From NCBI RefSeq assembly GCF_003019035.1, contig NZ_CP027447.1: a DNA stretch of 64,000 bases; one strand, given 5' to 3'. This document shows positions 33,544 to 63,649 of this stretch, one piece after another. Position numbers and translations under genes: made by a program. A model generated the notes under the pieces. The model did no database searches and was not told the origin of the DNA. It saw only the letters and a program-made list of their open reading frames with translations. The DNA comes from Escherichia coli. Lineage in GTDB: Bacteria; Pseudomonadota; Gammaproteobacteria; Enterobacterales; Enterobacteriaceae. The number at the start of each line of letters is the position of its first letter. Within the stretch, counting starts at the first letter, position 1.

Positions 33544-36171
33544 TTATTCTTCTTCTGGCTCGTCGTCAACGTCCACTTCCGGAGCGATTTCATCGTCCCC
33601 TTCCGCGGCACTGCCGTCGATGGTATCCAGATCTTCCTCGTCAACCGGTTCAGCAACACGTTGCAGACCCACTACGTTTTCATCTTCCGCAGTACGGATG
33701 AGGATCACACCCTGGGTGTTACGGCCCACGATGCTGATTTCTGAAACGCGAGTACGTACCAGCGTACCGGCATCGGTGATCATCATGATCTGGTCGCAGT
33801 CATCTACCTGCACTGCGCCAACCACTAAACCGTTACGTTCGGTAACCTTGATGGAAATAACCCCTTTCGTCGCACGCGACTTGGTTGGGTATTCCGCCAC
33901 TGCGGTACGTTTACCATAACCGTTCTGCGTTGCGGTGAGGATTGCGCCATCACCACGAGGTACGATCAGAGAGACGACTTTATCGCCTTCGCCTAAACGA
34001 ATACCGCGAACACCGGTGGTGTTGCAGCCCATCGCACGGACAGAAGACTCTTTAAAGCGCACCACTTTACCTTCAGCGGAGAACAGCATTACTTCATCTT
34101 CGCCACTGGTCAGGTCAACGCCGATCAGCTCATCGCCTTCAACCAGTTTGATCGCCACTTTACCGGCAGTACGCAGACGGTTGAATTCGGTGAGGACGGT
34201 TTTCTTCACAGTTCCGTTAGCGGTCGCCATGAAGACTTTCACGCCTTCTTCAAACTCGGTCACTGGCAGGATCGCAGTGATACGTTCGTCTTGCTCCAGC
34301 GGCAGCAGGTTGACGATCGGACGACCGCGCGCGCCACGAGTAGCTTCTGGCAACTGGTAGACCTTCATCGAATAGACGCGACCACGGCTGGAGAAGCACA
34401 GAATATGGTCGTGGGTATTCGCCACCAGCAGTCGGTCGATAAAGTCTTCTTCTTTAATACGTGCGGCAGATTTACCTTTACCGCCACGACGCTGCGCTTC
34501 GTATTCAGAAAGCGGCTGATACTTCACGTAGCCCTGGTGAGAGAGCGTCACGACCACATCTTCCTGGGTGATCAGATCTTCCAGGTTGATGTCTGCGCTG
34601 TTGGCGGTGATTTCAGTACGACGTTTGTCACCGAACTGTTCACGAACCAGCTCCAGCTCTTCGCGGATCACTTCCATCAGACGATCGGCGCTACCAAGAA
34701 TACGCAACAGTTCCGCGATCTGATCCAGCAGCTCTTTGTATTCGTCGAGCAGTTTTTCGTGCTCAAGGCCGGTCAGTTTCTGCAGACGCAGATCCAGAAT
34801 CGCCTGAGCTTGCTGTTCGGTCAGGTAGTACAGACCATCGCGCACGCCGAACTCTGGCTCCAGCCATTCCGGACGCGCAGCATCGTCGCCAGCACGTTCC
34901 AGCATCGCGGCAACGTTGCCCAGCTGCCACGGATTAGCAACCAGCGCGGTTTTCGCTTCTGCAGGCGTCGGCGCATGACGGATCAGTTCGATGATCGGGT
35001 CAATGTTCGCCAGCGCCACGGCTAATGCTTCAAGGATATGAGCACGATCGCGAGCTTTACGCAGTTCGAAAATAGTACGACGGGTCACCACTTCACGGCG
35101 GTGACGAACAAACGCCGCGATGATGTCTTTCAGGTTCATGATCTTCGGCTGACCATGGTGCAATGCCACCATGTTAATACCGAAAGAAACCTGCAACTGG
35201 GTCTGGGAGTAGAGGTTGTTGAGCACCACTTCACCGACCGCATCGCGTTTCACTTCAATCACGATGCGCATACCGTCTTTGTCAGACTCGTCACGCAGCG
35301 CGCTGATACCTTCCACGCGTTTTTCTTTTACCAGTTCCGCAATCTTCTCGATCAGGCGCGCTTTGTTCACCTGATACGGAATTTCATGGACGATAATGGT
35401 TTCACGTCCGGTTTTGGCGTCAACTTCCACTTCAGCACGGGCGCGGATATATACCTTGCCGCGACCGGTACGGTAAGCTTCTTCAATACCGCGACGACCA
35501 TTAATGATTGCCGCCGTCGGGAAGTCCGGCCCAGGAATGTGTTCCATCAGCCCTTCAATGCTGATGTCTTCATCATCGATATACGCCAGACAACCGTTGA
35601 TAACTTCCGTCAGGTTGTGCGGCGGGATGTTGGTTGCCATACCTACGGCGATACCGGAGGAACCGTTCACCAGCAGGTTAGGAATTTTGGTTGGCATGAC
35701 GTCCGGAATTTTTTCCGTGCCGTCATAGTTATCAACGAAATCGACCGTCTCTTTTTCGAGATCGGCCATCAGTTCATGGGCAATTTTCGCCAGACGGATT
35801 TCCGTATAACGCATTGCCGCCGCAGAGTCGCCGTCGATGGAACCGAAGTTACCCTGACCGTCTACCAGCATGTAACGCAGCGAGAATGGCTGCGCCATAC
35901 GGACGATCGTGTCATAAACCGCCGAGTCACCATGGGGATGGTATTTACCGATTACGTCACCAACGACACGGGCAGATTTTTTATAGGCTTTGTTCCAGTC
36001 ATTGCCTAGTACGTTCATGGCGTAAAGTACGCGACGGTGTACCGGCTTCAGGCCATCTCGGACATCCGGCAGCGCACGGCCAACAATGACCGACATCGCA
36101 TAATCCAGATAGGAGCTCTTCAGCTCTTCCTCAATGTTGACCGGTGTAATTTCTCTCGCAAGGTCGCTCAT
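33544..36171 (-). CDS. gyrA: DNA gyrase subunit A
   Basis: 875-aa [50 protein letters not shown]...; QRDR reads [10 protein letters not shown] (Ser83 = TCG at 35925..35923, Asp87 = GAC at 35913..35911). Confidence 0.97.
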
Positions 36172-36215: not shown

Positions 36216-36221
36216 ATTATA
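36216..36221 (-). promoter_or_regulatory. Candidate gyrA -10 hexamer (TATAAT)
   Basis: Minus strand reads TATAAT about 45 bp upstream of the gyrA ATG; no mapped transcription start. Confidence 0.4.
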
Positions 36222-36429
36222 ACACAATCGCTTGCGGACGGGTAAACGTAATGCAGGCTTCCGGGCGCTGTAGATCTACTGCGTTTTACCCCACCGCCAG
36301 CACACATCGCGCTGGCGGTGAACGACAAAGGAACAAAGACCGCAACACGCTTCCTGTGCCTCAATAAACACCAGAAATAATGGCTATACTCGTCATACTT
36401 CAAGTTGCATGTGCTGCGTCTGCGGGTTA

Positions 36430-36598
36430 TTCGGCCCATCCATGGGCCTCACCCCTTACGGGGCCGCTGCAAGCAGCGTTCAAATCCGCTCCATGCGGAT
36501 TTGTCGCTCACCCCAGTCACTTACTTATGTAAGCTCCTTGGGATTCACTCGCTTGTCGCCTTCCTGCAACTCGAATTATTTAGAGTATATAAATCGCC
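36430..36598. repeat. ERIC-like (enterobacterial repetitive intergenic consensus) element
   Basis: Core at 36505..36548 is the reverse complement of GTGAATCCCaAGGAGCTTACATAAGTAAGTGACTGGGGTGAGCG, the conserved ERIC central inverted repeat; outer boundaries approximate. Confidence 0.7.
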
Positions 36599-36599
36599 G

Positions 36600-37802
36600 T
36601 TATTTGATCACATAGGCAAGATATTGTTGTACGATTTCATCGTTTAATTCCTGACCAAGCCCAGGCAACTCTGGCGCGACATAATAGCCATTCTCGGGTT
36701 GATAATCGTAAGTACAAAGTTCCCGAATACATGCTTTCATCGCATTGGTATGATGTTCATGAATAATAAAGTTAGGTATTGCAGTTTCCATATGCAGCGC
36801 CGCTACTGTTGAAACAGGCCCGCCACAAACATGTACCTGAACGGTTGTGTCATATATATTGGCATAATCACAAATTTTCTTTCCCTCTGTAATGCCACCA
36901 CAAAGACACAAATCAGGTTGAGCTACCGCAATTGATTGTTTTTCCAGTAAATCACGATATCCCCAGCGAGTATAAGAACGCTCACCTGTTGCTATCGGAA
37001 TCGATGTTGAACGGGCAACTTTCTGCATATTATCCGAATTTAATGGATGAATTGGCTCCTCATAGAGAAAAATACGATATTTCTCTATTGCTTTGGCAAA
37101 CTGGATCGCTGAATTTGTTCCTAGAAGAGAATGAATCTCTACAATAATATCAGCATCGTCGCCCATTGCTTCACGCATAGCGGCAATTCTTGTCTCGCCC
37201 ATTTTTAATTGTTCGGCCAGTAATAAGCCAGAGTAATTTCTATTTTTGTTCTGAAAGACACAATCGCCGCCATGCAGATCGATTTCAAGCGGATCAACTT
37301 TTATCGCATTATAACCTTCTGCAATAGCGGCACGCGCTGCCTCTGCATACTCTTCAGGCGTTACTAATATTTGCCTTTTTTCGCCCCAACCAAATTGTAA
37401 CTGACTGGCGTAAGTTCTCAATTTATCGTTAGTCTTTCCCCCCAGTAGTTGATAAACCGGCACGTTTAAATATTTACCTTTAATATCCCATAAGGCAATA
37501 TCAATAGCGCTCATACCTGCGTAAAAAACATTACCACCGCCCATTCCCCAAAATGTTTTCCTGAAGAGGAATTCCCAAATCTTCTCAATGTTCAACGGAT
37601 CTTCACCAATGATGAGAGGGGCTAAATCTCTGATAATACCAACACCAGATTTTGCACCTGCGCCATAGGCTAATCCTACTTCGCCAACACCACTTATTCC
37701 AGCATCGGTATTAACCCGAATAAGTACTGGATTATAAGAGGCCATAGTTTGATCTCTTTTTTTGAGTTCGCAGTCAAAAATTTCTACAGATGTAATCTTC
37801 AT
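36600..37802 (-). CDS. Enolase-superfamily dehydratase (mandelate racemase / galactonate dehydratase-like); substrate unknown
   Basis: 400 aa from the ATG at 37802 (GAGG Shine-Dalgarno 7 nt upstream; ORF track starts at 37814). Motifs ALWDIKGK, QLLGG, EEP, ATGER, QPDL, GGITE shared with DgoD/RhmD-type enzymes. Confidence 0.8.
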   Translation of the reverse strand: MKITSVEIFDCELKKRDQTMASYNPVLIRVNTDAGISGVGEVGLAYGAGAKSGVGIIRDLAPLIIGEDPLNIEKIWEFLFRKTFWGMGGGNVFYAGMSAIDIALWDIKGKYLNVPVYQLLGGKTNDKLRTYASQLQFGWGEKRQILVTPEEYAEAARAAIAEGYNAIKVDPLEIDLHGGDCVFQNKNRNYSGLLLAEQLKMGETRIAAMREAMGDDADIIVEIHSLLGTNSAIQFAKAIEKYRIFLYEEPIHPLNSDNMQKVARSTSIPIATGERSYTRWGYRDLLEKQSIAVAQPDLCLCGGITEGKKICDYANIYDTTVQVHVCGGPVSTVAALHMETAIPNFIIHEHHTNAMKACIRELCTYDYQPENGYYVAPELPGLGQELNDEIVQQYLAYVIK

Positions 37803-37814
37803 AAATAACCTCAT

Positions 37815-39143
37815 TTATTTAGCATGTGAAATAACATTGTCTTTCTGGGCGTTATCTTTTTTATTATCAATTTTCATTGATAACAAAATAGCTACGGCGA
37901 TAAAGCAAAGAATCGCCTCAACAATAAATATCCCCGTGGCTCCATAATGTGTAGAAACATAGCCAAGTGATTTATTGATCAGAAAACCACCCAAACTTGA
38001 ACAAGAGTTAATAAACGCAATACTGATTGCCAGGCCTGATGGTGAAAGTAAAGCTGAGGGTAAAGCCCAGTACGGACCGTAATAACTGAGAATGCCTACA
38101 CCGTATAATGTTAATCCCATCATGCGCAGCGTCATCGAAGGTACAAGTGCGATCATTAAAAAACCGCAACCTGCAACCAACATCGGTAGTGCGGCATGCC
38201 ATTTCCTTTCATTCTTTTTATCGGAATGCCATCCCCATAATGGCATACTGAACATCGCGAAAATAAACGGAATACTCATAATCAAACCGACATCGGTATC
38301 TGTGAAATCCGATGAAAATCCTTTAACCAACCCCGGTAACCAGTAATTTGCCGCCAACGCCGCTGCCTGAATAAACATATAAGCAAATGAGAGTTGTAGT
38401 AATACTGGATTTTTAATGATTGACAGAAAAGATGCATTTGTATTTTTATTTAATGCTGCGGCTTTTTCGTTATCAGAATTAAGTTTATCGACCAATGCGG
38501 TGACTTGCGATGGTGTAAGCCAGCGGGCTTTTTCCGGACGATCTGGCAGTAAATAAAAGGTCAGCGCCCCCAATAACACCGTAGGAATGCCTTCAATAGC
38601 AAAAAGCCAGCGCCATCCTTCATAGTTACCGGTATTCATATGTTCAATAATCCAACCAGACATTGGTGCCGCCAGCACAGATGCAACTGCGATTGATAAC
38701 ATAAAAAAGCTATTCACTTTTCCACGTTCACGCGCCGGGAACCAACATGCCAGGTAGTAAACCATGCCAGGGAAAAAACCCGCTTCAAATATTCCCAAAA
38801 AGACCCGAGCGAGCAATATATGCTGGGTGTCTTTGGCAAAGAAAATTAACGTTGTTACTGTTCCCCAACCAACAATAATGGCGCTAATCCATTTTCTTGC
38901 ACCTAACTTTTGCAATCCAATACTGCTCGGAATTTGAAAAATCAAATAGGACACAAAAAATATTGAAGATATATTAGCAAAATCCTCTGGAGTAATACCA
39001 AGGGATTCATTCATGCGTAAAGCGGCAAATCCGATGTTAACACGATCCATATAGTTAAAAAAATACAGAATAAATGCTAACGGAATAATCTTCCTTTTCA
39101 CAATAGAAATGGCGTCATACAAATCTTTCTGAGGACTGCTCAT
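37815..39143 (-). CDS. MFS transporter, anion:cation symporter family (sugar-acid type)
   Basis: 442-aa polytopic ORF; conserved DRxNIGFA and GIFEAGFFPG motifs as in RhmT/DgoT-type transporters; AAGGTG Shine-Dalgarno; 12-bp gap to the dehydratase gene. Confidence 0.8.
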   Translation of the reverse strand: MSSPQKDLYDAISIVKRKIIPLAFILYFFNYMDRVNIGFAALRMNESLGITPEDFANISSIFFVSYLIFQIPSSIGLQKLGARKWISAIIVGWGTVTTLIFFAKDTQHILLARVFLGIFEAGFFPGMVYYLACWFPARERGKVNSFFMLSIAVASVLAAPMSGWIIEHMNTGNYEGWRWLFAIEGIPTVLLGALTFYLLPDRPEKARWLTPSQVTALVDKLNSDNEKAAALNKNTNASFLSIIKNPVLLQLSFAYMFIQAAALAANYWLPGLVKGFSSDFTDTDVGLIMSIPFIFAMFSMPLWGWHSDKKNERKWHAALPMLVAGCGFLMIALVPSMTLRMMGLTLYGVGILSYYGPYWALPSALLSPSGLAISIAFINSCSSLGGFLINKSLGYVSTHYGATGIFIVEAILCFIAVAILLSMKIDNKKDNAQKDNVISHAK

Positions 39144-39380
39144 TTTGTTTCACCTTTTGTGCTTCAATGAATAAGAGTACTGCCCGAAGTGGATATTACG
39201 TAAAAAATAATCCAGTTCAAAAGGTGATGTGTTATATCTGATATATCAGCTTGATCATTGATTGAAACACTAAGCTACAACAATAAGATATATCATTTTT
39301 GTCATATCTGATATATTAGACACCTTCATTGATAAAATGATTACATATAATGGACCAGCAGCTTAATAAGGGGCAAAGGA

Positions 39381-40079
39381 ATGAGAGATAAAGCGAAACG
39401 TGACTTAAGTCACATATCAATTGAGATACCAAAATCCGTAACACAGGTCATCAAAGAAAAAATCAGGGATATGATAATTCATGGCGATCTCAGTCTTGGG
39501 CAACCGATAAGTGAAAATGAACTTTCGAATATCCTGGCGGTAAGTAAAACACCTATTCGTGAAGCTTTTATTTTACTTAGTCACAATGAAAATCTGATCA
39601 ATATCATTCCACGCAGCGGAACATTCGTTTTTTCCGTAACAGATAAAGATATTAATGACCTCATAAAAATGCGAGTAATTCTGGAGCAGGGTGCAATTCG
39701 TGAAGCAATGGAAAAGAATGAAAACAATGTCATCATTGAATTAAGTAGCATACTATCAAAATCAGCAAAAATTAATGCCGAGCGTGATACTCAGGCTTAT
39801 CTTAAATTGGATCATGATTTTCATTATGTGTTTGTTAAATACGCTGCTAATAAATACATCTCTCAGGCACACCAATTGATATCCGCACGTTTACTTGCTA
39901 TTCGTTATCGACTGGATTTCACTACGGAATATATTACCAATTCAAATCGTGGCCATGCCACTATTTTAGATATGCTAAAAAATAATAACGTTGAAGGTGT
40001 TTGTAATTTTATTACTCATCACGTAAGTAGTGGATTTACCGAGCGTGCACGAAAAATTCTCTCGTTATCTACACAGTAA
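39381..40079 (+). CDS. GntR-family transcriptional regulator (FadR/FCD-type C-terminal domain)
   Basis: 232-aa ORF; N-terminal winged HTH (ENELSNILAVSKTPIREAF); divergent from the MFS-dehydratase pair; AAGGGG Shine-Dalgarno 7 nt upstream. Confidence 0.8.
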   Translation: MRDKAKRDLSHISIEIPKSVTQVIKEKIRDMIIHGDLSLGQPISENELSNILAVSKTPIREAFILLSHNENLINIIPRSGTFVFSVTDKDINDLIKMRVILEQGAIREAMEKNENNVIIELSSILSKSAKINAERDTQAYLKLDHDFHYVFVKYAANKYISQAHQLISARLLAIRYRLDFTTEYITNSNRGHATILDMLKNNNVEGVCNFITHHVSSGFTERARKILSLSTQ

Positions 40080-40156
40080 AATGTGAATGAGTTTATAACA
40101 CTGGCACTTTTCACCTGCTATACTGCCCGACAACCTTTATAGACTCTTATGTAACA

Positions 40157-40879
40157 ATGAACACTGAAAATCTCCTTAAAAACAATAACGTAGACCACGA
40201 AGAGATCGCTAAATTTGAAGCCGTCGCCTCCCGCTGGTGGGATCTTGAAGGTGAGTTCAAACCGCTGCACCGCATTAACCCGCTGCGTCTGGGCTATATT
40301 GCCGAGCGTGCTGGCGGTTTATTTGGCAAAAAGGTGCTCGATGTCGGTTGTGGCGGCGGCATTCTGGCCGAGAGTATGGCGCGCGAAGGCGCGACGGTGA
40401 CCGGTCTGGATATGGGCTTTGAGCCATTGCAGGTGGCAAAGTTGCACGCGCTGGAAAGTGGCATTCAGGTAGAGTACGTGCAGGAAACCGTGGAAGAGCA
40501 CGCGGCAAAACATGCCGGGCAGTATGACGTGGTGACCTGCATGGAGATGCTGGAGCACGTGCCCGATCCGCAGTCAGTGGTCAGAGCCTGTGCGCAACTG
40601 GTGAAACCGGGCGGCGATGTCTTTTTCTCGACGCTTAACCGCAACGGCAAGTCATGGCTGATGGCGGTAGTCGGCGCAGAATATATTTTGCGCATGGTGC
40701 CTAAAGGTACACATGATGTGAAGAAGTTTATTAAACCGGCAGAATTGCTGGGCTGGGTGGATCAGACAAGCCTTAAAGAGCGGCATATGACTGGGCTGCA
40801 TTACAACCCGATCACTAATTCCTTTAAGCTCGGCCCCGGCGTGGATGTGAACTATATGCTGCATACGCAGAATAAGTGA
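40157..40879 (+). CDS. ubiG: UbiG, ubiquinone biosynthesis O-methyltransferase
   Basis: 240-aa ORF with SAM-binding [13 protein letters not shown] motif; N-terminus [16 protein letters not shown] differs from the recalled K-12 N-terminus, the rest is near-identical. Confidence 0.93.
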
Positions 40880-44782: not shown

Positions 44783-45315
44783 ATTAATCTGACCATCATT
44801 TTCTATAAGACGGCATATTTAATCGCATTATACGATATGGGTTATTTTTCTTTTGTAAATTGTTCAACCCGGTGCAATGGCTATTTTGTTATTATTTCAT
44901 GAATAATATCAGTGCGTCATAATTCAAGTTAATCACCTTAAGGGATATCAGTTATGTTTAAACTGAATTAAAGTAATGAATAATTTTCTTATAATATAAG
45001 GTAAATTAACAAAATGGCTTCGCATTTAACAACAACCGAAGAGAAAACAACCATTTCGACATCAACAATCGCTTACATTCGCTTATATATTGACCATAAC
45101 TGATACATCAGATTATGTGATGACTCGTGCTTAGATCAATTTTTGCAATCATTAGCCAAAAGATTAATAAACCATCTATATCAATTTATCTAACCTATTC
45201 TTCCGTTCAAGAAATCGCCGAACAGTTATTTTTAACAAATTTTTCTCTTCCCATTGACTTTCCCGGACACCTTGTCTGACCTAAGGTGCGCGAAAGCCAC
45301 TTTTTCCTTCCTGAG

Positions 45316-47908: not shown

Positions 47909-49039
47909 ATGGCATATACCACCTTTTCACAGACGAAAAATGATCAGCTGAAAGAACCGATGTTCTTTGGTCAGCCGGTCAACGTGGCTCGCTACGATCA
48001 GCAAAAATATGACATCTTCGAAAAGCTGATCGAAAAGCAGCTCTCTTTCTTCTGGCGTCCGGAAGAAGTTGACGTTTCTCGTGACCGTATCGATTACCAG
48101 GCACTACCTGAACACGAAAAACACATCTTTATCAGCAACCTGAAATATCAGACGCTGCTGGACTCCATTCAGGGTCGCAGCCCGAACGTGGCACTGCTGC
48201 CGCTGATCTCGATCCCGGAACTGGAAACCTGGGTAGAAACCTGGGCGTTCTCAGAAACGATTCATTCCCGCTCCTATACCCATATCATCCGTAATATCGT
48301 TAACGATCCGTCGGTTGTGTTTGACGATATCGTCACTAACGAGCAGATCCAGAAACGTGCGGAAGGGATCTCCAGCTATTACGATGAACTGATCGAAATG
48401 ACCAGCTACTGGCATCTGCTGGGCGAAGGCACCCACACCGTCAACGGTAAAACCGTGACCGTTAGCCTACGTGAGCTGAAGAAAAAACTGTATCTCTGCC
48501 TGATGAGCGTTAACGCGCTGGAAGCGATTCGTTTCTATGTCAGCTTTGCTTGTTCTTTCGCATTTGCGGAACGCGAACTGATGGAAGGCAACGCCAAGAT
48601 TATTCGCTTGATTGCCCGTGACGAAGCCCTACACCTGACCGGCACCCAGCATATGCTGAATCTGCTGCGCAGCGGCGCGGATGATCCGGAGATGGCGGAA
48701 ATTGCCGAAGAATGTAAGCAGGAGTGCTATGACCTGTTTGTCCAGGCGGCACAGCAAGAGAAAGACTGGGCGGATTATCTGTTCCGTGATGGTTCGATGA
48801 TTGGTCTGAATAAAGACATCCTCTGCCAGTACGTTGAATACATCACCAATATCCGTATGCAGGCAGTCGGTTTGGATCTGCCGTTCCAGACGCGCTCCAA
48901 CCCGATCCCGTGGATCAACACCTGGCTGGTGTCTGATAACGTGCAGGTTGCTCCGCAGGAAGTGGAAGTCAGTTCTTATCTGGTCGGTCAGATTGACGCG
49001 GAAGTGGACACCGACGATTTGAGTAACTTCCAGCTCTGA
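47909..49039 (+). CDS. nrdB: Ribonucleoside-diphosphate reductase 1 beta subunit
   Basis: ORF track starts at 47858 inside REP DNA; the ATG at 47909 gives the canonical 376-aa [22 protein letters not shown]... Confidence 0.95.
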
Positions 49040-60262: not shown

Positions 60263-61066
60263 TCAATAACTACCTTTTACGCGTGGCCCATTTTTGCCTG
60301 ATTCAAACATCGCCAGTCGTTGATCCAGGGCATCGCTGTAGAGCATCGTGTCAACGCCAACAGCGACAAAGTTCGCTCCCCACGCCAGGCATTGCTGCGC
60401 CATATCAGGAGCCACAGCCAGAAAACCAGCAGCTTTACCCGCAGCACGGATCCGCCGAATACTGGTTTCAATAATTCGCTGCACTTCCGGGTGCCCGGCG
60501 TTATCCGGGTAGCCCAACGACGCAGAAAGATCCGCAGGTCCAATAAACACGCCATCAATCCCTTCGACGTCGAGGATTTCGTCCAGGTTATCCAGTGCCG
60601 TCTTACTTTCCACCTGCACCAACAGACAAAGCGAATCGTTGACGTGCGCCATGTAATTCTCAATGCGTCCCCAGCGAGCAGCCCGTGCCACACTGGCCCC
60701 AACACCACGCTCACCGTAGGGAGGATAGCGCGTGGCAGACACCACCTGACGTGCCTGATCGGCAGTATCGACCATCGGGATCAGTAGAGTTTGCGCGCCA
60801 ATATCCAGGACTTGTTTAATCAGCGACTTACTGGCTTCCACCGGACGGATCACGGGTTGGCTGGCATAGGGCGCTACCGCCTGTAGCTGGTGATAAAGAT
60901 CCTGAATGGTGTTTGGCGCGTGCTCCCCGTCAATCAGCAACCAGTCATAACCGGAGGTGGCGGCAATTTCTGCCATATAAGAAGTAGTCGAGCTTAACCA
61001 CAGACCAATTTGCACTTCGCCCTTGCGTAAACGTTCTTTAAAGGGATTGCTTAATAATGCGTTCAT
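60263..61066 (-). CDS. rhmA: 2-keto-3-deoxy-L-rhamnonate aldolase
   Basis: ORF track over-extends to 61369; the ATG at 61066 gives the canonical 267-aa [26 protein letters not shown]... (HpcH/HpaI aldolase family). Confidence 0.92.
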
Positions 61067-61083
61067 CGTGTTCCTTAACCTAT

Positions 61084-62373
61084 TTAATGATGTGCCACGT
61101 CGGTCTGCGCAACAGTGCGATTTACACGCAGAGTGAAAATAATCAGCGAACCGATGACCGCCACCGCTGCCAGCGTCAGTAATCCCGCCGCATCGCTGGA
61201 AAATAACGTTTCTGCTTTCACGCGCAGGATCGGGGCAATAAACCCGCCCACTGCACCAAACAGGTTTACAAAACCAATCCCCGCAGCCAGCGCCGTACCG
61301 GAAAGCAGTTGTGTCGGCATCGTCCAGAACACCGGCTGCACGGCAATAAACCCGATGGCTGCAACACACAGCGCTACGATCGCCAGTACTGGAGAAAGCA
61401 GCCCGGACAGACCAATACCAATGCCCGCCGCCAGTAATGTCAGCGCTGCGACATTACGCCGTTCGCCGGTTTTATCGGAATAGCGCGGAATAAGCCAGGT
61501 TCCAAACAAGGCCGCAACCCACGGAATGGCGGTGACCACCGACGCCGTAAAGCCCACTTTTGTCCCCAGCAATGCAGCAACCTGGGTCGGCAGGAAGAAA
61601 ATTAATCCGTAAACCGCTACCTGAATGGTCAGGTAGATAATCGCCAGTTGCCAGACTCGCCCATTACGCAGCGCATCGCTCAGTCGGGAAGTCACTTTCT
61701 GTTGTTCTTCACTTGCCAGTTGGTTGATAAGCAACGTTTTTTCTTCTTTACTCAGAAAACGTGCCTGCTCCGGTGTGTCATCAAGCCAAAAGAATGTGAA
61801 TACCCCAGCGCCGACTGCCAACAATCCTTCAATAACAAACATCCAGAACCAGCCGGGATGCCCCATAAATCCATGCATCTCCAGCAGCGCGCCAGAAAGC
61901 GGTGATCCCAGTGTTAACGCCAGCGGTGCGCCCATATAGAACAGCCCCATAATGCTGGCGCGATTACGCTGCGGAAACCATTGCGAGGTGAGATAAATCA
62001 TACCAGGGAAAAACCCAGCCTCCGCAGCACCAAGCAGAGTGCGAACAATCAGAAATTTCGCTTCAGTATCGGCCCATGCCATGGCAGCCGAAAGAAATCC
62101 CCACAGCAGTGTTGTCGTACCAATCCAGGTTCTTGCCCCCAGTTTGCGCATCAAAAGATTCGCCGGAACCCCCAGAAACGCGTATACCACAAAGAAAATG
62201 CCTGCTCCCAGCGCATAAGCTTCATTACTCAGCCCGGTATCAATCTGGTAGGTCTGTTTGGCAAAACCAATATTCGAACGGTCGAGAAACGCCAGCACAT
62301 ACAGCGCCAACATAAACGGAATTAAACGCGCGCGGTTTTTCTTCACCACGGCGTCAAGCAAAGCGGTGCTCAT
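61084..62373 (-). CDS. rhmT: L-rhamnonate MFS transporter
   Basis: ORF track starts at 62412; the ATG at 62373 with AAGGAG Shine-Dalgarno gives 429 aa [22 protein letters not shown]... Confidence 0.9.
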
Positions 62374-62429: not shown

Positions 62430-63635
62430 TTAGTGGCTGTAGGGGCGTTTCAAATTGCAGTCACGATTGAGTTCGACGCCGAAACCGGGTTTATCAAGCA
62501 CTGATTTATGAATACGACCATTCACCGGAACCGGCTCATTAAGCAGAATCGGATCAAATTGCGGACGCATCGTTGAACAATCCGGGCTGGTCATCAGGAA
62601 TTCACTGAATGGCGTATTGGTGAAGGTGATCACCGCATGGTGGGAGTAAACAGACGAACCGTGCGGCACCACCAGTTGCCCTCTGGATTTGGCGATTGCG
62701 GCAATTTCCACCAGCGTGGTTAAGCCACCGCACCAGCCAACATCCGGCTGCATAATGTCGATACCGGTTTCTGAAAGCGTACGGAAAGATTGCAATGTGC
62801 CGTGGTGCTCACCGCTGGTGACCATCATCCCCGCTGGTGCGTTGCGTTTCAGTTCGCGATAACCTTCATACTGCTGTGGCGGCAGGCACTCTTCGATCCA
62901 TTTCAGGTTATAGGGCGCGCAAGCGTGGGCCAGTTTGGTGGCATAGTTCACGTCCTGACTCATCCAGCAGTCGAGCATTAACCAGAAATCCTCACCGCAT
63001 TTTTCACGCATATCCGCGACCATAGCGGCATCTTTGCGGATCCCCGCATCGCCATCATGTGGCCCCCAGTGCGTCGGCATTTTGCCACCGATAAAGCCCA
63101 TCTCTTTTGCCAGATCCGGACGCGCACCTGTGGCGTAGAACTGAATCTCATCACGAACCGCGCCGCCTAAAAGTTTATAAACCGGAAGCCCAACCACTTT
63201 GCCGAACAGATCCCACAGAGCCAGATCGACACAGGAAATCGTATTCATCACCAGGCCACCAGAGCCGGAGTAATACAGGGTGGCATTGAGCATTTGATCG
63301 TGGATCAGTTTGATATCACTGACACATTTACCCTCAATGAAACGGTTAAGGTGTTTTTCGACAATAAAACAGCCCATTTCACCGGCTGTCGAAACGGCGA
63401 ATCCGGTCTGGCCGTTTTCTGCTTCGACTTCAACAATCAACGTGCCAAGAACGTTAATGCCAAATGACTGGCGTGACTGCTCATAATCGCGGTATTTACT
63501 CATCGGGGTGGCAATATGATCGTCAATCCAGTGATTCGCCCCCTGGTCGTGATAATCACCGCCGCCAGCGCCTTTTTCTGCTGTCGCACCGCCAGTAAAC
63601 CAGGCGCGAACCTGTTTGATTTTTGGTAGGGTCAT
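62430..63635 (-). CDS. rhmD: L-rhamnonate dehydratase (enolase superfamily)
   Basis: ORF track starts at 63647; the ATG at 63635 is preceded by GGAGAA and gives 401 aa [30 protein letters not shown]... Confidence 0.92.
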
Positions 63636-63649
63636 GCTGTTCTCCATTG

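Follow-up and report, generated by a model that had tools for sequence, protein, structure and literature searches.

What do three genes between gyrA and ubiG do for the strains of Escherichia coli that carry them, and how old is their presence there? The question is raised by contig NZ_CP027447.1 of E. coli assembly GCF_003019035.1, from which a stretch of 64,000 nucleotides (the window) was analysed. The gene order in the window is yfaA, gyrA (33544-36171, minus strand), the islet, ubiG (40157-40879, plus strand), yfaL and nrdA. According to the list of open reading frames (ORFs), the islet comprises three intact genes in a 3.9-kb segment of low GC content in the gyrA-ubiG interval. They encode an enolase-superfamily dehydratase, a transporter of the major facilitator superfamily (MFS) and a GntR-family regulator, and their positions are those given in a preliminary description of this DNA. 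That description took the islet for a sugar-acid module that is paralogous in layout to the rhmRDTA genes of the same window.

As judged from position, gene order and divergence, the islet is the E. coli orthologue of a Salmonella module that is structurally solved and functionally unassigned. It most likely represents a ligand-inducible, self-contained catabolic cassette with a sugar-acid dehydratase, a reading that we regard as probable. Such an architecture is in itself unsurprising and of an ordinary kind. The module is one of the enteric 'orphan' cassettes of the acid-sugar type, carried by Salmonella and by a minority lineage of E. coli. The identity of its substrate would provide a nutrient-niche marker separating Salmonella and some E. 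coli from the rest, and it would annotate thousands of homologues.

Orthology with a Salmonella Module

Salmonella enterica contains the same three genes in the same order and orientation and at the same position between gyrA and ubiG, in the STM2273-STM2275 region. The amino-acid identity between the two species is 92% for the dehydratase, 89% for the MFS protein and 87% for the regulator. The nucleotide identity of the islet (79-82%) corresponds to species-level divergence, and the candidate operator palindromes described below are identical. To our knowledge, the module is universal or near-universal in Salmonella; the exact Salmonella protein is listed in 33,100 collection blocks.

The divergence of the islet genes from Salmonella resembles that of their flanks. 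Nucleotide identity, dS and dN/dS are, respectively, 82.4%, 1.4 and 0.032 for the dehydratase gene, 78.6%, 2.2 and 0.032 for the MFS gene, and 79.2%, 2.8 and 0.023 for the GntR gene, as compared to 85.7%, 0.67 and 0.072 for gyrA and 79.0%, 2.6 and 0.022 for ubiG. The same flanks, the same order and a flank-like divergence, as expected of orthologues, are thus all found. Strong purifying selection acts on the islet genes in both species. Since the dS of the islet is comparable to that of ubiG, the segment looks as old as the Escherichia-Salmonella split. Probably, the common ancestor of the two genera already had it, and most E. coli lineages have lost it since. The simplest history is that a minority lineage kept the segment and the others did not. 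Recent horizontal acquisition was considered as well and is ruled out by a divergence from Salmonella equal to that of the flanking ubiG. The low GC content of the segment (0.34-0.43, vs. about 0.52 in the flanks) suggests that it was originally foreign DNA, acquired much earlier.

The Dehydratase

The dehydratase ORF can be extended to position 37814. The start at 37802, which gives a protein beginning with MKITS, is preferred because a GAGG Shine-Dalgarno sequence, the start of the RefSeq coding sequence and the N-terminus of the crystallised orthologue agree on it. The protein matches PDB entries 2GL5 and 4E6M, both deposited as 'putative dehydratase protein', with an E-value of about 1e-259. 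The protein in these entries is the 92%-identical Salmonella orthologue Q8ZNH1, which databases name 'Dehydratase protein' or 'mandelate racemase/muconate lactonizing enzyme family protein'. The Pfam domains MR_MLE_N and MR_MLE_C, which represent the N-terminal capping domain and the C-terminal modified TIM barrel, are found on this orthologue and on all homologues. The family is tightly conserved and has been crystallised twice, with no substrate assigned to it.

The best NCBIfam models for the protein are all acid-sugar dehydratases, and it scores below the cut-off of every one: 248.9 bits for DgoD (NF010624, cut-off 311), 239 bits for the archaeal gluconate/galactonate dehydratase (cut-off 750), 203.6 bits for ManD (NF043051, cut-off 550) and 125.2 bits for RhmD (NF011968, cut-off 393). 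Fungal homologues with 60-66% identity are named 'galactonate dehydratase' in the database.

The active site was examined by alignment to RhmD and to 19 diverse family members from Proteobacteria, Synergistota and fungi (57-87% identity to the window protein). In the alignment, the RhmD metal ligands D226, E252 and E280 correspond to E222, E248 and E274, which completes the set of three carboxylates that bind the essential divalent metal at the ends of barrel strands 3, 4 and 5 in this subgroup. D297, in a QPD motif, aligns with RhmD D302 and supplies the aspartate of the His-Asp dyad, the general base or acid at strands 7 and 6. The assignment of H324 as its histidine rests on invariance and motif, because the BLAST register is 3 residues off RhmD H329. 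H224 lies two residues past the first metal ligand, like the histidine of the D-x-H motif in galactonate and mannonate dehydratases; in those enzymes it is the acid that expels the 3-hydroxyl group. E222, H224, E248, E274, D297 and H324 are invariant in 19/19 members. With its catalytic and metal-binding residues invariant, the enzyme has an intact catalytic apparatus. A loss of catalytic residues, which the preliminary description had named as a finding that would speak against its interpretation, is not observed.

The same residues invite a second reading, in which the enzyme is not a dehydratase and instead acts as a racemase or epimerase of a 2-hydroxy acid by 1,1-proton transfer of the mandelate-racemase type. 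The protein does belong to the mandelate racemase subgroup, it keeps the Asp-His dyad, and an invariant Lys168 lies near the expected end of strand 2. Moreover, D-2-hydroxyacid dehydrogenase genes stand near relatives of the enzyme in at least 7 loci, and the tandem paralogue pairs of Firmicutes, described below, could be epimerase/dehydratase pairs. However, the KxK motif is absent (the local sequence is IKVD), the E-x-H motif has its counterpart in the D-x-H of galactonate and mannonate dehydratases, and every one of the nearest curated families is a dehydratase family. Racemization or epimerization seems very unlikely to us.

The Transporter and the Regulator

The gap of only 12 nt between the transporter and dehydratase genes indicates that the two almost certainly form one co-transcribed operon, divergent from the regulator gene. 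The MFS protein is closest in NCBIfam to the HpaX and D-galactonate-transporter subfamilies, with about 270 bits each and both below cut-off. Its score with TIGR00893 is 269.7 bits vs. a cut-off of 395, the alignment being full-length (model positions 1-396 of 399). Among solved structures, DgoT (6E9N) comes closest, with a weak match of 76 bits. The motifs DRVNIGFA and GIFEAGFFPG of the islet protein align with RhmT, where the former reads DRSNIGFA; the motif sharing noticed earlier is thereby confirmed. The D-R pair and the glutamate within these motifs are presumably those of transmembrane helices 1 and 4, respectively, corresponding to D46, R47 and E133 of DgoT.

Pfam detects GntR and FCD domains on the Salmonella orthologue of the regulator, and solved GntR/FCD regulators match residues 21-222. 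The 232-aa ORF contains both a complete winged helix-turn-helix (wHTH) domain and a complete FCD domain, and it has been deposited as an intact protein in many GenBank records. RefSeq, in contrast, marks the gene as 'frameshifted', with a start 44 nt upstream (39337-39381), in strains SCU-301, IAI39 and OkiPb01700. The 2-bp difference between E. coli and Salmonella is located upstream of the ATG at 39381. This codon aligns with an internal methionine of the long Salmonella gene call and is preceded by a Shine-Dalgarno sequence in both species, and conservation starts only there. The upstream position of the difference, the conserved ATG and a dN/dS of 0.023 together suggest that the flag stems from an over-long reference model and is probably a start-codon annotation artefact.

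If the flag were correct, the E. coli copy would be a decaying remnant, with a pseudogene for a regulator and an operon that is unregulated or silent. The absence of the islet from 97% of complete E. coli genomes would agree with this, as would the single genome in which IS1 took out the MFS gene and parts of both neighbours. Against decay, each of the three annotated E. coli genomes that were checked (SCU-301, IAI39 and OkiPb01700) has intact dehydratase and MFS genes, and in 140 of the 141 carrier genomes at least 80% of the islet is retained, with 95-100% identity. A regulator pseudogene is ruled out by the alignment with Salmonella, the intact deposited proteins and the dN/dS, and the remnant explanation as a whole deserves hardly any credence.

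Control Region and Candidate Operators

In the 237-bp region that separates the two divergent start codons, a 20-nt direct repeat, TGTYATATCTGATATATYAG, occurs at 39230 and 39300; its core (CTGATATATCAG) is a perfect palindrome. The conserved control-region palindrome is CTGAYATRTCAG. Both copies of the repeat are perfectly conserved in Salmonella, whereas the surrounding control-region DNA has diverged. Palindromes with at most 2 mismatches from the core occur in the equivalent control region of 8/12 orthologous loci. Their density is 64-fold higher in control regions (12 in 4.9 kb) than elsewhere (8 in 209 kb). A GC-rich version, CTGACATGTCAG, is found in the Cupriavidus and deltaproteobacterial loci. 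The comparative evidence that the palindromes are candidate operators of the GntR protein is good. A promoter-like site lies just upstream of the second operator candidate, at 39262-39289(+); the promoter scan is uninformative, with 16 promoter-like sites vs. 13 expected by chance.

Two copies of the core with one mismatch each are present elsewhere in the window. One, CTGATACATCAG, is located at 45100-45111 in the AT-rich region upstream of yfaL, inside a longer imperfect palindrome; the other, CTGAAATATCAG, is at 48140-48151. About 0.1 such one-mismatch cores are expected per 64 kb, assuming equal base frequencies.

Table 1. Features of the islet and comparator genes (window coordinates).
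Feature	Position	Strand	Basis or remark
Variable segment missing from K-12-type E. coli	36227..40185	.	K-12 homology edges, 141/5426 genomes, low GC
ERIC/IRU intergenic repeat, gyrA to dehydratase stop codon	36385..36598	.	genome matches, primer matches
Enolase-superfamily dehydratase (mandelate racemase subgroup, GalD-like), 400 aa	36600..37802	-	ORF, PDB match, invariant residues
12-nt spacer with GAGG Shine-Dalgarno, MFS to dehydratase	37803..37814	-	sequence reading
MFS anion:cation symporter (ACS/SLC17-like), 442 aa	37815..39143	-	NCBIfam, PDB match, RhmT identity
Divergent control region, 237 bp	39144..39380	.	between two divergent start codons
Operator candidate 1, TGTTATATCTGATATATCAG, core CTGATATATCAG	39230..39249	.	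palindrome, identical in Salmonella
Operator candidate 2, TGTCATATCTGATATATTAG, 70 bp from candidate 1	39300..39319	.	palindrome, conserved in Salmonella
GntR-family regulator with FCD ligand domain (FadR subfamily), 232 aa	39381..40079	+	Pfam, PDB, dN/dS
rhmA (comparator)	60263-61066	-	20-23 kb from islet
rhmT (comparator)	61084-62373	-	20-23 kb from islet
rhmD (comparator)	62430-63647	-	20-23 kb from islet

Proposed Function

We propose the following scheme. The GntR/FCD protein would bind the two CTGATATATCAG-type palindromes in the divergent control region and keep its own gene as well as the MFS-dehydratase operon repressed for as long as it is free of substrate or product. The MFS protein is likely a proton-coupled importer of organic anions of the DgoT/RhmT type, with inward transport presumed. 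The dehydratase is predicted to depend on Mg2+ and to have a GalD-like site, with three carboxylates, an Asp-His dyad and a histidine that follows the first ligand by two residues. It would abstract the alpha proton of a 2-hydroxy acid and eliminate the beta-hydroxyl group, yielding a 2-keto-3-deoxy acid. Enzymes encoded elsewhere may then finish this product, the candidates being an HpcH/HpaI aldolase (RhmA, GarL), a DapA-type aldolase and the KdgK/Eda or DgoK/DgoA pairs. The substrate would fall into the aldonate/aldarate class, with an aldolase acting downstream.

A known parallel in composition is the D-galactonate system of E. coli, dgoRKADT, which has the same three protein families and the same repressor logic, DgoD being the dehydratase, DgoT the transporter and DgoR a GntR/FCD repressor. 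DgoD is the top-scoring curated family for the islet dehydratase, yet the score is 249 bits vs. the 311 required. DgoD shares with the islet enzyme the active-site pattern (D/E)-x-H, E, E, D, H. The islet differs from dgo in that kinase and aldolase genes are absent and the first metal ligand is Glu, not Asp.

The rhm genes, an L-rhamnonate system, served as the second comparator. The islet and rhmRDTA have in common an enolase-superfamily dehydratase with alignable metal ligands and an MFS transporter of the ACS family. The dehydratase shows 25% identity to RhmD (E = 1e-22), in agreement with the earlier placement of both in one superfamily, and the MFS protein shows 31% identity to RhmT over its full length (E = 1e-70). 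However, the gene order is D-T-A in rhm vs. T-D in the islet, and the regulator is of the IclR type in the former and of the GntR type in the latter. The rhm set has its own HpcH/HpaI aldolase, whereas no aldolase gene is found within the islet ORFs. The preliminary description was correct as to the missing aldolase, the regulator family and the distance to rhm, and overstated the case in calling the islet paralogous in layout to rhmRDTA. The identities of 25% and 31% rule out a recent duplication of rhm. The similarity, as read from the proteins, is ancient and of superfamily level, not the result of a local duplication. The longest ORF over rhmA (60263-61369, 368 aa) is over-extended and overlaps rhmT; the RhmA start, MNALLSNPF, is near 61066.

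The Cassette in Other Bacteria

A scan of a genome collection yielded at least 80 loci, which are a sample, not a census. Their neighbouring genes were called with a crude longest-ORF gene finder that is unreliable in high-GC loci such as L016. Among the matches listed, the GntR, dehydratase and MFS genes form a cassette at unrelated positions in Budvicia (between gltI and lnt), Caballeronia (at least 3 genomes), Morganella (adjoining an integrase) and Pseudomonas (at least 2 genomes). Cupriavidus has the regulator and the dehydratase only. The regulator-dehydratase pair, usually accompanied by the MFS gene, is a recurrent self-contained unit among beta-, gamma- and deltaproteobacteria. Co-conservation of the three genes, on which the preliminary description had made its reading depend, is borne out by the shared locus in Salmonella and by the cassette in these four further genera.

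Most contexts show no aldolase adjoining the cassette. At least about 20 loci of Pseudoalteromonas, Arsukibacterium, Colwellia and related bacteria (53-55% identity) have the gene after a class II aldolase-family gene (349 bits, cut-off 207). The gene faces an aldose-dehydrogenase-like short-chain dehydrogenase/reductase (SDR) and a weakly fuconolactonase-like (lactonase-like) amidohydrolase in most loci of the Pseudoalteromonas type. A deltaproteobacterium has a LarA-type nickel-pincer isomerase (479 bits, cut-off 400) and an HpcH/HpaI aldolase directly upstream. The latter belongs to the RhmA/GarL family and would fit the earlier suggestion of an RhmA-like aldolase encoded elsewhere. The presence of aldolase, lactonase or epimerase neighbours in some relatives fits a sugar acid as the substrate. 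In Synergistaceae, the gene is paired with a TRAP transporter.

In Firmicutes relatives (loci L017, L022, L023, L056, L060 and L065; 45-59% identity), the gene forms tandem arrays of two to four paralogues, and an APC-type permease or a TRAP transporter is often encoded in between. Such an arrangement is suggestive of diversified substrates or of hetero-oligomers.

Sulfur and Amino-Acid Neighbours

Several of the sampled neighbourhoods bear on the main rival of a sugar-acid dehydratase, namely a one-step lyase that would convert a small 2-hydroxy acid with a beta leaving group to a central metabolite, with no need of an aldolase. Examples are 3-sulfolactate to pyruvate and sulfite, 3-mercaptolactate to pyruvate and H2S, and a tartrate isomer to oxaloacetate. 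The chemistry would involve the same alpha-proton abstraction and beta-elimination, and the cassette does repeatedly consist of a regulator, a transporter and one enzyme in unrelated chromosomal contexts. In Pseudomonas fluorescens PS900 (L015, 1-21200) it is part of a sulfur island and has a set of sulfur genes on either side. One set encodes an Lrp-type regulator, a cystathionine beta-lyase, an APC permease and a sulfide:quinone reductase (SQR). The other encodes a SoxC-type sulfite dehydrogenase (580 bits, cut-off 420) with cytochrome c, a putative TauE-like membrane protein, a sulfurtransferase-SQR fusion and a persulfide dioxygenase; the TauE-like assignment is a sequence reading with no NCBIfam match. 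The operon of Gilliamella apis (L010, 7064-11767) consists of the dehydratase, a Ser/Thr-type HAAAP transporter and a cystathionine beta-lyase (443 bits, cut-off 366). In Morganella (L009, 6853-14973), a PatB C-S lyase, an orthologous HAAAP transporter and an AsnC-type regulator adjoin the cassette. Finally, Oxalobacter has the gene with a polar amino-acid ABC transporter, a tautomerase and, after the enzyme, a two-subunit enzyme of the UxaA/GarD type, a heteromeric architecture shared by SuyAB (PMC6336799).

SuyAB, the (2R)-sulfolactate sulfo-lyase, is of relevance to this minority reading only. It catalyses a beta-elimination from a 2-hydroxy acid to give pyruvate, and its systems are one-enzyme pathways that are typically clustered with sulfite handling genes. 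It is a member of the UxaA/GarD superfamily (PMC6336799) and has no relationship to the enolase superfamily. The Oxalobacter large subunit matches galactarate dehydratase only, and weakly (133 bits). No sulfur genes are nearby in E. coli, Salmonella, Budvicia or Caballeronia, and the genes beside other relatives are of kinds that typically go with sugar acids (aldolase, lactonase, SDR and epimerase). Furthermore, the sets of a C-S lyase, a transporter and an Lrp/AsnC regulator may be independent cysteine-utilisation modules that merely adjoin the cassette. No sulfo-lyase is known in the enolase superfamily. We consider a one-step lyase rather unlikely.

A bolder proposal, which we rate as quite improbable, is that the whole family consists of beta-elimination lyases of the enolase superfamily, and not of aldonate dehydratases that supply an aldolase. 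These lyases would act on an organosulfur 2-hydroxy acid (3-sulfolactate or 3-mercaptolactate, for example) and release pyruvate together with sulfite or sulfide. If true, the proposal would explain both the one-enzyme cassette and its C-S lyase, sulfide:quinone reductase, sulfite dehydrogenase and SuyAB-like neighbours. It would amount to new superfamily chemistry and a new enteric route to gut sulfonates or thiols.

Two side observations concern these loci. The C-S lyases of Gilliamella (MetC-type) and Morganella (PatB-type) are non-homologous, each with an orthologous Ser/Thr-type HAAAP transporter. PS900 also contains a second, distant cassette of GntR, enolase-family and MFS genes 8 kb away.

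A catabolic cassette with a sugar-acid dehydratase nevertheless remains the preferred interpretation, and several points weigh against it. The first metal ligand is Glu where Asp is usual, and the dehydratase stays under every curated NCBIfam cut-off. A literature search on STM2273, 2GL5, 4E6M and Q8ZNH1 found no paper assigning a function or a substrate; the one hit for STM2273 was a VNTR paper. A simple scan revealed no terminator and no strong sigma-70 promoter for the operon, and the RefSeq frameshift flag stands on the regulator. Amino-acid-type transporters (HAAAP, APC and polar amino-acid ABC) and C-S lyases lie beside several relatives. Most close relatives have no adjacent aldolase or kinase, so that the follow-on pathway is assumed, not seen. 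The sugar-acid interpretation as it was first put forward is partly supported: the catalytic residues and the co-conservation of the genes speak in its favour, the rhm paralogy was overstated, and the sulfur and amino-acid neighbours had not been predicted. The preliminary description also made no mention of the orthology with Salmonella and the structures solved there, the apparently vertical history of the segment, the ERIC element at the islet edge, the candidate operator palindromes or the RefSeq flag.

Boundaries and Distribution in E. coli

The gyrA-ubiG gap in K-12 is only 146 bp. Homology to K-12 stops at 36226 and restarts near 40186, inside ubiG codon 10. Since identity restarts only there, the segment takes in the ubiG promoter and the first ~9 ubiG codons; that is, the variable segment extends into the essential ubiG gene, past its start codon. 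The stretch 40102-40185, with the ubiG promoter region and these codons, is unlike K-12, in which the protein sequence there reads MNAEKSPVNHNVDHEE. A 9-mer, TTATAACAC, is present at both islet edges (36218-36226 and 40093-40101) and in a single copy at the K-12 junction. It may be a trace left by a deletion that joined short direct repeats, or a coincidence.

The islet is carried by 141/5426 complete E. coli genomes (2.6%), including IAI39, a phylogroup F reference strain, and is absent from the rest. It is chromosomal and single-copy in every carrier, and that of SCU-301 is 100% identical to the one analysed here. In E. coli AF57 (NZ_OZ546943), an IS1 insertion has eliminated the whole MFS gene, along with the 5' portion of the dehydratase gene and the greater part of the regulator gene. 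This case shows that loss of the islet is still under way within E. coli.

The ERIC stretch between gyrA and the dehydratase stop codon, taken alone, has 2-12 matching places in 5425/5426 E. coli genomes. The two classical ERIC PCR primer sequences match once each, at 36505-36548. An Rfam search of the sequence gave only a sub-threshold match, located on this element. The spacer between gyrA and the dehydratase gene varies in length among islet-positive strains (225, 350 and 428 bp) and is 409 bp in Salmonella.

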